From a virus (Duplodnaviria; Heunggongvirae; Uroviricota; Caudoviricetes): a stretch of 40,622 bases of DNA. Under the pieces are notes generated by a model. That model made no database searches. It was given only the letters and a program-made list of their open reading frames with translations, and was not told the origin of the DNA. Position 1 is the first letter of the stretch. Each line of letters starts with the position of its first letter. Where the stretch lies: positions 1 to 40,622 of IMG/VR virus record IMGVR_UViG_2671180275_000009. The stretch is one strand, 5' to 3'. The position numbers were made by a program, and so were the translations under genes. Below, piece after piece: positions 19,920-22,828 of the stretch.

Positions 19920-21044
19920 ATGAAGACGAAAAACACGCCCAAACTTGCTTATGCCATTCTGAATGCCATCAGCCTGTCCGCAGACGGGGACGGTGACTGG
20001 TGTCAGATCATGCCAGCCGGTCGGGTAAAGGCCCGTGACGGTCGCCCGGAAAAACCGGCTGAAGGCTGGCTGATTAACCGTGCGACCGTTGAGCGCATGG
20101 TATCCCGGGTTGTGGCGCTCAATCAGCCGGTAAAAATTGACTACAACCACCAGACCCTGATTAAGGGGCATCAGGCACCGGCTGCCGGTTTTGTGACGGC
20201 TTCACCGGAAAACTTCCGCTTCAGTGAAGAGCGTGGCTTCGAGGTGCGCCCGAAGTGGAACCCTCCGGCCCTTGAACATCTGCGTAATAACGAATTCCCC
20301 TGGTTTTCACCGGTGATTGGCTATGACGAGAACACCGGCGAACCTGTCGAACTTCGGATGCTGGCTATTACCGGTGACCCCGGTCTGACCGGCATGAATC
20401 CTGTCGCCGCGCTGTCGGCGGATGACCTTTATAACGCCTTAAACCCTCCTTTAAAGGATACCTCCATGAATGAGCAATTACGCCAGTTGCTGACGGCGCT
20501 CGGTCTGACCGTGGCTGACGGTGACGAATTTACGCCGGAGCTGGGCACGGCGGCGCTGTCTGCCCTCACCGGGATCAAAACCCGTGCGGATGCACACGAC
20601 AACCTGAAAACACAGGTCGCCAGTCTGTCGGCAGAGCTGGAAACCGCAAAAGGCACACCGGCTGGCGGCAGTATTGATCTGACGAAATACGTGCCCGTTG
20701 AGACGTATAACGCCCTGCGTACCGAATATGTCGCGCTGTCGGCACAGCACGGCAGCACCACGCTGGAGCAGTTGCTGGATAAGGCCGAGTCCGAAGGACG
20801 CATTTTCAAAAGCGAACGCGGATACATGGAAGGACTCGGACAACAGATTGGCGTTGCAGCACTTTCTGCGCAGCTTGACGCCCGCCAGCCGGTTGCGGCT
20901 CTGACCGGTCTTCAGACCGACACCGTGACCGTGCCGGATAAAAAGACCGCCACCGCCTCGCTGTCGGCTGAAGATATCGCCGCCGCCCATCTTCTGGGTA
21001 AAACCGAAGCCGAATTCCTGAAAATGAAAGAGGAAATGCAATAA
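19920..21044 (+). CDS. Head maturation protease / scaffold (Mu I, gp32-like)
   Basis: 374-aa ORF directly upstream of the major head gene, with coiled-coil C-terminal half. Confidence 0.7.
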   Translation: MKTKNTPKLAYAILNAISLSADGDGDWCQIMPAGRVKARDGRPEKPAEGWLINRATVERMVSRVVALNQPVKIDYNHQTLIKGHQAPAAGFVTASPENFRFSEERGFEVRPKWNPPALEHLRNNEFPWFSPVIGYDENTGEPVELRMLAITGDPGLTGMNPVAALSADDLYNALNPPLKDTSMNEQLRQLLTALGLTVADGDEFTPELGTAALSALTGIKTRADAHDNLKTQVASLSAELETAKGTPAGGSIDLTKYVPVETYNALRTEYVALSAQHGSTTLEQLLDKAESEGRIFKSERGYMEGLGQQIGVAALSAQLDARQPVAALTGLQTDTVTVPDKKTATASLSAEDIAAAHLLGKTEAEFLKMKEEMQ

Positions 21045-21991
21045 TGCCTACCCCGATTACACCGGCGATGATCACCGCCCTGATGACGGGCTACCGTTCT
21101 GATTTTCAGGCCGGGATGTCCATGGCCCCGTCGCAGTACAAAAAAATTGCGATGACCGTGCCCTCCACCTCGAAATCCAACACCTACGGCTGGCTGGGGC
21201 AGTTCCCGCAGTTCCGTGAGTGGATCGGCTCCCGCGTCATCGAGAAGATGAAGGCCTATGGCTATGCCATCGTGAACAAAACCTTTGAAGGCACCGTCGC
21301 CATTAACCGTGATGACTTCGAAGACGATAACCTCGGTATTTATTCCCCGTTGTTCCAGGAGATGGGGCGCGCTGCTGCGGCACAACCGGATGAACTGGTC
21401 TTTGCTGCTCTTCGTGACGGGATTAATGCGGCCTGCTATGACGGCCAGAACTTCTTTGATACCGAACATCCTGTTTACCCCAAAGTGGATGGCTCCGGGG
21501 ATGCGCAGATGGTCAGCAATATGTTTGTGGCAAAAACCGGCTCTGTCGGTGCACAGGCGGATTACAGCGGTCCTGCCTGGTATCTGCTCGACTGTTCACG
21601 CGCAATCAAACCGCTGATTTATCAGGATCGCCGTAAGGCTGAACTGGTTGCCCAGACCAAAGTCGATGAAGGTCGCGCATTCACCGATAACGAATTTGTG
21701 TTCGGTGCTTCCGCCCGTCGCAATGTGGGCTACGGCTTCTGGCAGATGGCCTACATGATGCAGTCACCGCTGACGCTGGATGCACTGTGGCACGGCTGGT
21801 CAGCCATGCGCGAATTTACCGCTGACGGTGGCCGCAAGCTCGGCATCAAACCCACCCATATTGTTGTCCCCACCTCGCTGGAAAAACAGGCGGTGCAGCT
21901 GCTGGAGCGTGAACTGTTCGCAGACGGAAACGCCACCGTCTCTAACGAGATGAAGGGCAAGCTGGAGCTGGTTGTCGCGGATTATCTGTAA
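21044..21991 (+). CDS. Major head subunit (Mu T, gp34-like)
   Basis: 315-aa ORF after protease/scaffold; start overlaps the upstream stop. Confidence 0.75.
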   Translation: MPTPITPAMITALMTGYRSDFQAGMSMAPSQYKKIAMTVPSTSKSNTYGWLGQFPQFREWIGSRVIEKMKAYGYAIVNKTFEGTVAINRDDFEDDNLGIYSPLFQEMGRAAAAQPDELVFAALRDGINAACYDGQNFFDTEHPVYPKVDGSGDAQMVSNMFVAKTGSVGAQADYSGPAWYLLDCSRAIKPLIYQDRRKAELVAQTKVDEGRAFTDNEFVFGASARRNVGYGFWQMAYMMQSPLTLDALWHGWSAMREFTADGGRKLGIKPTHIVVPTSLEKQAVQLLERELFADGNATVSNEMKGKLELVVADYL

Positions 21992-22034: not shown

Positions 22035-22412
22035 ATGAATGAACATCACACTGTGGCAGCAACAGATGATTCAGGTCTTCAGGTCAGTGGTGACAATTCT
22101 GTCACGGTGCTGGCAGAAGTGCGTTGCAGTCGTTCGGCGTTTCGTCGTGCGGGGTTCCTGTTCACGCGTGGACGTCAGCAGGTTGAGGTCACCCCGGAGC
22201 AGCTTGCCCGACTGGAGGCGGAGCCATGCCTCACTGTGCGAATACTACAGACGCCTGCTGATGATGCGGGGAGCGTGGCGGGTGTGGTTCATGCAGTGGC
22301 CGGTACAGATTTAGCCGAAGCCGAAGCCGAAGCCGAAGCCGAAGCCGGACAGGATGCTCCCCGGAAAAAGACCGGTAACAAAGCGAAACAGGCGAAAAAG
22401 GCCCGCGCATGA
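22035..22412 (+). CDS. Hypothetical head-associated protein with an internal (Ala-Glu)n repeat and basic C-terminus
   Basis: 125-aa ORF; ...LAEAEAEAEAEAGQDAPRKKTGNKAKQAKKARA. Confidence 0.55.
   Translation: MNEHHTVAATDDSGLQVSGDNSVTVLAEVRCSRSAFRRAGFLFTRGRQQVEVTPEQLARLEAEPCLTVRILQTPADDAGSVAGVVHAVAGTDLAEAEAEAEAEAGQDAPRKKTGNKAKQAKKARA
22314..22349 (+). repeat. Hexanucleotide tandem repeat: GCCGAA x5 plus GCCGGA
   Basis: Directly visible; in frame, encoding (AE)5-AG. Confidence 0.95.
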
Positions 22413-22828
22413 ATTACGCCACTGAAAGCGATATGCGGGCGCGTTACCGCGAGGATTTGCTCAGGCCGTTACTGGCAGTGCCCCGTTCGGATGAGCTGGA
22501 CACGCGCAAGCTGAACCGGGCGCTGACAGATGCGTCAGCCCTTATCGACAGCTATCTGTCCGCCCGTTACACGCTGCCGCTGGAGGTTATCCCGGCTGTT
22601 CTTGTTCAGCACTGTTGCGCGATTGCCTTTTATTACCTGTGCGATCAGCGAGCCTCCGATCAGGCGCGTGACCGTTACCGTGAAGCGCTGGCCTGGCTGA
22701 AAGATGTCATGAACGGCAATGTGCCGGTAGGTGTGGATACGAACGGTGCGGCCCCTGAATCCGGGGATTTACCACAGGTTCAGTCTGATGCAGCGGTATT
22801 CGGGCGCAACCAGAAGGGCTTCATATGA
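22409..22828 (+). CDS. Mu gp36-like head-tail connecting protein
   Basis: 139-aa ORF, position. Confidence 0.5.
   Translation: MNYATESDMRARYREDLLRPLLAVPRSDELDTRKLNRALTDASALIDSYLSARYTLPLEVIPAVLVQHCCAIAFYYLCDQRASDQARDRYREALAWLKDVMNGNVPVGVDTNGAAPESGDLPQVQSDAAVFGRNQKGFI

Follow-up and report, generated by a model that had tools for sequence, protein, structure and literature searches.

The question raised by this locus is whether a short tandem repeat in the coding sequence of a phage head-region gene is a fixed feature of the encoded protein or a variable one and, if it varies, what the variation means for the phage. The repeat lies in a window of 40,622 nucleotides, the whole stretch of DNA that was analysed, where five GCCGAA units followed by one GCCGGA occupy positions 22314..22349 of the plus strand. 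The array is in frame within the open reading frame 22035..22412 (+) and encodes (Ala-Glu)5-Ala-Gly as residues 94-105, so that the protein around it reads ...GTDL-AEAEAEAEAE-AG-QDAPRKKTGNKAKQAKKARA. Both the DNA sequence and its translation agree with the sequence-only reading, which had described five GCCGAA units and a GCCGGA in frame ahead of a lysine-rich tail. Tandem Repeats Finder calls the array at 22313-22347 with a period of 6, 5.8 copies, 100% matches and a score of 70, while all the other tandem repeats reported for the 40.6 kb window have at most 2.2 copies; the earlier remark on how unusual such a repeat is within a cluster of structural genes is true of the window, in which this is the sole multi-copy tandem repeat. 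The longest run of bases that are each identical to the base six positions before is 29 bases in the window, whereas 300 sequences simulated from the window by a first-order Markov model gave longest runs of 10 at most and 7.5 on average. The length of the array is far beyond chance.

The window is essentially one complete Mu-like, Sp18-like prophage. It aligns to Sp18 of E. coli O157:H7 Sakai from ~1590 to ~40400, with 94-97% identity in the early and head regions and 96.5% over the head region. The prophage is mosaic with respect to Sakai Sp18: the segments at 23.5-27.7 kb and 33.7-35.2 kb cannot be aligned, and the tail/baseplate region at 27.7-33.7 kb is 75-78% identical. The gene that contains the array (22035..22412, plus strand) encodes a protein of 125 aa related to Mu gp35 and FluMu HI1506; it is ECs_4975 in Sakai Sp18 and its product has the RefSeq name 'HI1506-related protein'. 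The upstream neighbour encodes the Mu-like major head subunit gpT (21044..21991, plus strand; PF10124, E 3e-119), and the downstream neighbour encodes a Mu gp36-type head-tail adaptor (22409..22828, plus strand; Phage_Mu_Gp36, PF07030), the start of which overlaps the gp35 stop (ATGA). A Mu-type protease/scaffold gene (PF10123) is nearby in the head region, and gp37, DUF2635 and tail sheath genes are found beyond gp36. In a Mu-like late operon a gene of the gp35 family is expected to lie between gpT and gp36, and these two flanking genes bear out the earlier description of a head-region gene. The only matches in the phage collection were LC727881.1 and LC727895.1, which are Stx2c- and Stx1a-converting phages with an annotated inserted Mu-like phage region and carry gene copies 12 and 30 bp longer than that of the window; in these the Mu-like element has transposed into Stx prophages.

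The protein is predicted to consist of a folded domain followed by a disordered region. The alpha/beta N-domain (residues 23-72; 22101..22250, plus strand) is indicated by Pfam, by PDB 2OUT and by an AlphaFold2 (AF2) model. FluMu_N (PF17891) matches residues 36-72 with 37.5 bits against a cut-off of 25.8, the NMR structure of Haemophilus FluMu HI1506 (2OUT) is matched by sequence with an E of 4.4e-5, and the AF2 N-domain is matched to the same structure by Foldseek with an E of 8.8e-4; the Foldseek search with the AF2 model gave no significant structural neighbour besides 2OUT, the other matches having E > 0.4. The AF2 model was obtained from a shallow 14-sequence alignment and has a mean pLDDT of 63, but the N-domain has a pLDDT of 83-88, with strands at residues 23-29, 35-38, 41-44, 46-52 and 66-72 and a helix at residues 54-61. 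Residues 76-125 (22260..22409, plus strand), which contain the repeat and the basic tail, are predicted to be disordered: the pLDDT is < 50 over residues 76-107, the means of 10-residue blocks are 38-51 from residue 81 to the end, and DSSP assigns no secondary structure after residue 75 of the model. Placed after a confidently modelled N-domain, with a pLDDT < 50 and no secondary structure, the (AE)n tract is predicted to be a disordered low-complexity linker, the role that had been proposed for it from the letters. The linker of HI1506 is reportedly unstructured as well. A single alpha-helix was also considered for (AE)n and was rejected, as the AF2 model shows no helix there.

The array is followed by a Lys/Arg-rich tail of 20 residues (QDAPRKKTGNKAKQAKKARA; 22350..22409, plus strand), which stands where Mu gp35 and most homologues have a helical C-domain. 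Counted with the Ala-Gly before it, the tail has a net charge of ~ +6.8. Tandem Repeats Finder identifies in this tail a second in-frame repeat, GCGAAA(C/A)AG with 2.2 copies (22383..22402, plus strand). Sakai and many O157 alleles have one 9-bp unit less, with NKAEQARA instead of NKAKQAKKARA, which makes the Sakai-type tail shorter and less basic; the basic tail is therefore also length-polymorphic.

By its primer sites the array can be identified as EHC-5, an established VNTR typing marker, and it is in this sense already known. The published EHC-5 primers are ATACTACAGACGTCTGCTGATGA and CCGCTTTGTTACCGGTCTTTTTC (S5 Table, PMC10062581). The forward site is located at 22242..22264 on the plus strand and the reverse site at 22364..22386 on the minus strand, each with 1 mismatch in the window and 0 in Sakai; the two matches are convergent around the array, and 0 are expected by chance. 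The identification with this MLVA locus follows from the fact that both published primers, as reproduced in PMC10062581, flank exactly this array. EHC-5 is one locus of the Japanese 17-locus MLVA scheme and is credited in that study to Izumiya et al. 2010 (Microbiol Immunol 2010;54:569; reference 3 of PMC10062581). The same Japanese study reports EHC-5 alleles of 0 to at least 10 by MLVA fragment sizing, and found the locus to be missing from many O157 clades and to have high repeat numbers where present (PMC10062581). Absence from many O157 clades is what one would expect if the marker travels on a mobile Mu-like prophage. Being carried by a transposable Mu-like prophage, EHC-5 can be missing from a genome, occur more than once or change place, which matters for interpreting MLVA profiles. 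Three other candidates were compared and rejected: the TR1-TR7 O157 MLVA loci have the units AAATAG, TGGCTC, TATCTT, TGCAAA, AAGGTG, an 18-mer and GACCAC, none of which is GCCGAA; the primers of PulseNet O157-9 have no match in the window; and neither does the forward primer of EHC-6. The portions of the EHC-5 typing literature available to us do not discuss the host gene or the consequences for its protein, and literature text searches returned no paper describing the EHC-5 host gene.

We examined the copy number across related elements, a comparison in which an invariant count would have spoken against a length-polymorphic repeat. Among 5426 complete E. coli genomes, 228 have the host gene; it matches at 267 places in all, at most 4 of them in one genome. 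Alleles were sized in 85 sampled complete E. coli genomes by comparing the length of each place with that of the query. All of the length differences in this sample are exact multiples of 6 bp, and 17 alleles were distinguished, ranging from 2 to 21 total units with a median of 9 and a Nei diversity of 0.92. When the arrays are read directly, the counts refer to GCCGAA units and the terminal GCCGGA is extra, whereas the figures of 2-21 are total units. Read in this way, strain 107 has 1 GCCGAA unit, the window has 5, Sakai has 8, strain 130 has 13, strain 136 has 14, strain 118 has 15 and F1 E4 has 20, each followed by GCCGGA, while OkiPb01692 has 17 units, two of which are GTCGAA, also followed by GCCGGA. 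The cattle isolates 118, 130 and 136 show 0 mismatches over 12,323 bp of prophage flanks, yet have 15, 13 and 14 units; the array therefore changes much faster than point mutation accumulates, and in single-unit steps. The copy number clearly varies, and the sequence-only reading comes through this comparison: its length-polymorphic repeat is seen in the 17 alleles of the 85 genomes and in the 13, 14 and 15 units between identical flanks, and its expectation of length change without frameshift is seen in differences that are always multiples of 6.

The alleles also differ in the composition of their units. Variant units encoding Val-Glu (VE, GTCGAA) and Ser-Glu (SE) are found near the 5' end of the array, some of them duplicated as two-unit blocks, and in some alleles the terminal GCCGGA has been amplified to give (Ala-Gly)3-4 (alleles with variant units or AG expansions: proteins P0050-P0053, P0011, P0014, P0015, P0025 and P0047; L005 580-687). 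The AG expansions and the duplicated variant blocks suggest that slippage occurs at either end of the array and can also proceed in 12-bp steps. The full-length gene copies from complete genomes all stay in frame. In one protein, P0071 (GCA_026134135.1; L013 826-960), small indels to the left and right of the array give (Lys-Pro)3 followed by the normal basic tail. If genuine, this allele would be a natural test of how much sequence change the linker can bear, but we gave no weight to the frame shift, which is known from one draft assembly and may be a sequencing error. Many of the database entries for the protein are incomplete and break off within the array or next to it (P0063, P0065-P0070, P0073, P0076-P0081), which indicates that draft assemblies often break at this locus. 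The breaks may arise where one genome has several Mu-like prophages (up to 4 matching places) whose arrays differ.

Taken together, we consider it highly probable that the array is the EHC-5 VNTR, that its variation is driven by slippage, and that this variation is near-neutral in a disordered, weakly constrained segment of gp35. The perfect GCCGAA units would misalign during replication (slipped-strand mispairing), and each event would add or remove complete units. With a unit of 6 bp such events never disturb the reading frame, and what changes is the length of (Ala-Glu)n alone. The tract would sit in a disordered segment with the FluMu_N domain before it and the short basic tail after it, and a segment that is disordered and under weak constraint would tolerate from 1 to 20 units, with near-neutral drift among them. 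The array itself, its identity with EHC-5, its variation in steps of 6 bp even between otherwise identical prophages, its disordered surroundings and the low constraint come from the analyses; slippage as the mechanism and the near-neutrality are both what we infer, and for the gain and loss of units unequal recombination fits the same data. The fast variation in 6-bp steps supports the reading of the array as an in-frame polymorphic linker generated by slipped-strand mispairing, the slippage itself being the presumed part.

The constraint on the gene was estimated by comparing pN/pS in the same divergent strain pairs (the window against L009, L010 and L011). The values are 0.05-0.06 for gpT and 0.06-0.09 for gp36, but 0.51-0.68 for gp35 codons 1-93 (22035-22313), with ~8 synonymous and 13 nonsynonymous changes. 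With these small counts, gp35 is about 10 times less constrained than its neighbours. The elevated pN/pS of gp35 could reflect either relaxed or diversifying selection, and in the latter case it would favour a second explanation of the array, namely that the variation is adaptive. The acidic (Ala-Glu)n would then tune, as a rheostat, the charge or the reach of the basic and probably nucleic-acid-binding tail of gp35, with effects on the interaction with DNA at the connector, on assembly or on escape from a host sensor of gp35, and the variation would be both heritable and reversible. The tract lies immediately next to a tail of about +7, and the predicted net charge of the natural alleles extends from +1.8 with one unit to -17 with 20 units. 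Nearly all alleles keep the basic tail, so the C-terminus is not simply decaying, and in the short relative P0100, an unrelated member of the family, a Lys/Ala-rich tail likewise follows an Ala/Pro/Glu-rich stretch. Sp18 is a predicted intact prophage with efficient packaging of its DNA (PMC2669165), which means that the gene belongs to a working, active phage and so may matter. Against an adaptive role, no preferred length was seen, the 17 alleles being spread over the entire range of 2-21 units. The length of the acidic tract does not track the basicity of the tail either: among the alleles compared there is no sign of one offsetting the other, and the Sakai-type alleles, with their less basic tails, tend toward longer arrays. 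The 2025 cryo-EM study of Mu regards gp35 as a probable structural protein that is possibly connector-related, but its structure was not resolved in the virion (PMC11915804). We therefore regard an adaptive rheostat as unlikely, and its full form, in which a slippage-driven charge rheostat on a probably DNA-binding gp35 tail lets lysogen lineages produce phage ranging from +2 to -17, as slightly more doubtful still. If it were true, phage lineages could differ in their DNA or connector interactions or in recognition by a host defence sensor, and the array would be an in-frame contingency locus in a gene of the phage morphogenesis region.

A third explanation places the function of the array in the nucleic acid instead of the protein, either as an element that affects the translationally coupled gp36 or as part of an antisense gene. 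The ATGA overlap of gp35 and gp36 with the array ~60 nt upstream gives this idea some appeal, as does an antisense open reading frame of 59 aa that crosses the array (22231-22410, minus strand). This frame, however, merely reads the repeat as (Arg-Leu)n and most likely exists only because of the repeat, without being a gene. The segment from the array to the gp36 start is unaffected by the number of units, gp36 is strongly conserved at every array length, and no Rfam family has a match anywhere in the window, so that a role at the DNA or RNA level seems very improbable to us. Finally, it is hardly credible that errors of sequencing or assembly in a low-complexity stretch produced the apparent variation in copy number, even though many partial proteins end in or near the array (P0063, P0067, P0073) and drafts often break there, since arrays of 12-126 bp fit well inside single reads, and such an artefact is excluded by the exact 6-bp steps that are always found between complete genomes from many laboratories and by MLVA fragment sizing, which independently shows like variation (PMC10062581).

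The array is thus most probably a slippage-driven, near-neutral VNTR, and comparison with the Mu gp35 / HI1506 family indicates how it may have arisen. By BLASTP the host protein is 51% identical to Mu gp35 over 41 N-domain residues, and only the N-domain aligns. Mu gp35 and FluMu HI1506 share with the Sp18-type protein a homologous N-domain, the same position between gpT and gp36, and a variable linker next to the N-domain; among the distant homologues (Mu gp35, Edwardsiella and metagenomic proteins) the N-domain is common to all and the linker varies in length and composition. The difference is at the C-terminus. The proteins of Mu, FluMu, Edwardsiella and most of the distant homologues have a conserved helical C-domain (...RIRxAVAxLDKxNPxHFT..GxPKVxAVSxxLG...), whereas the Sp18-type protein lacks this domain and has (AE)n and the 20-residue Lys-rich tail instead. 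Without the C-domain, the Sp18-type protein is a member of the N-domain family with a variant architecture; in the E. coli Sp18 lineage an acidic repeat and a basic tail have taken the place of the gp35 C-domain. A deep search from the single sequence gave just 18 relatives, and the scan of species-representative genomes gave only Edwardsiella anguillarum; its protein carries a C-domain of the Mu type and lacks the repeat. A protein of 1815 residues in the representative library (P0093) has 7 distinct matches to the query's FluMu_N region, which suggests a large protein containing FluMu_N-like domains in tandem. The sequence ...TLAEAGG... of Mu gp35 is found at the same place as ...DLAEAGQ... 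of the one-unit E. coli alleles, and by this match the array appears to have expanded from an ancestral AE-AG pair (GCCGAA-GCCGGA). The array illustrates clearly how a phage protein can tolerate an in-frame VNTR in a disordered segment. It probably grew from an ancestral single-unit 'L-AE-AG', and its natural alleles of 1-20 units are a ready-made series for probing the C-terminus of gp35.

As a typing marker, the array of the window and EHC-5 are the same locus with the same 6-bp unit and the same high polymorphism, varying in whole units among strains both in the 17 alleles of the 85 genomes and in the MLVA tables, and the allele of the window has 5+1 units with 1 mismatch to each primer. 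The other O157 hexanucleotide VNTRs (TR1-TR7 / O157-3, -9, -17, -19, -25 and -37) belong to the same class of markers and have the same unit size, but other motifs. Genome scans that flag this array rediscover an EHEC typing locus; the VNTR is already known and the protein-level details given here are minor additions. The other known systems with which the array can be compared are the simple-sequence contingency loci, the phase-variable genes of Haemophilus, Neisseria and Campylobacter. Like them, the array is a perfect short repeat within a coding sequence that changes its copy number rapidly, most plausibly by slippage, and the 13, 14 and 15 units between identical 12.3 kb flanks show that the gene contains a hypermutable repeat of the kind that defines those loci. 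Contingency loci have a unit that is not divisible by 3, or a repeat that sets the spacing of a promoter, whereas here a 6-bp unit lies inside the open reading frame; as this unit is a multiple of 3, the array, unlike the contingency loci, does not switch its gene ON and OFF by frameshift.
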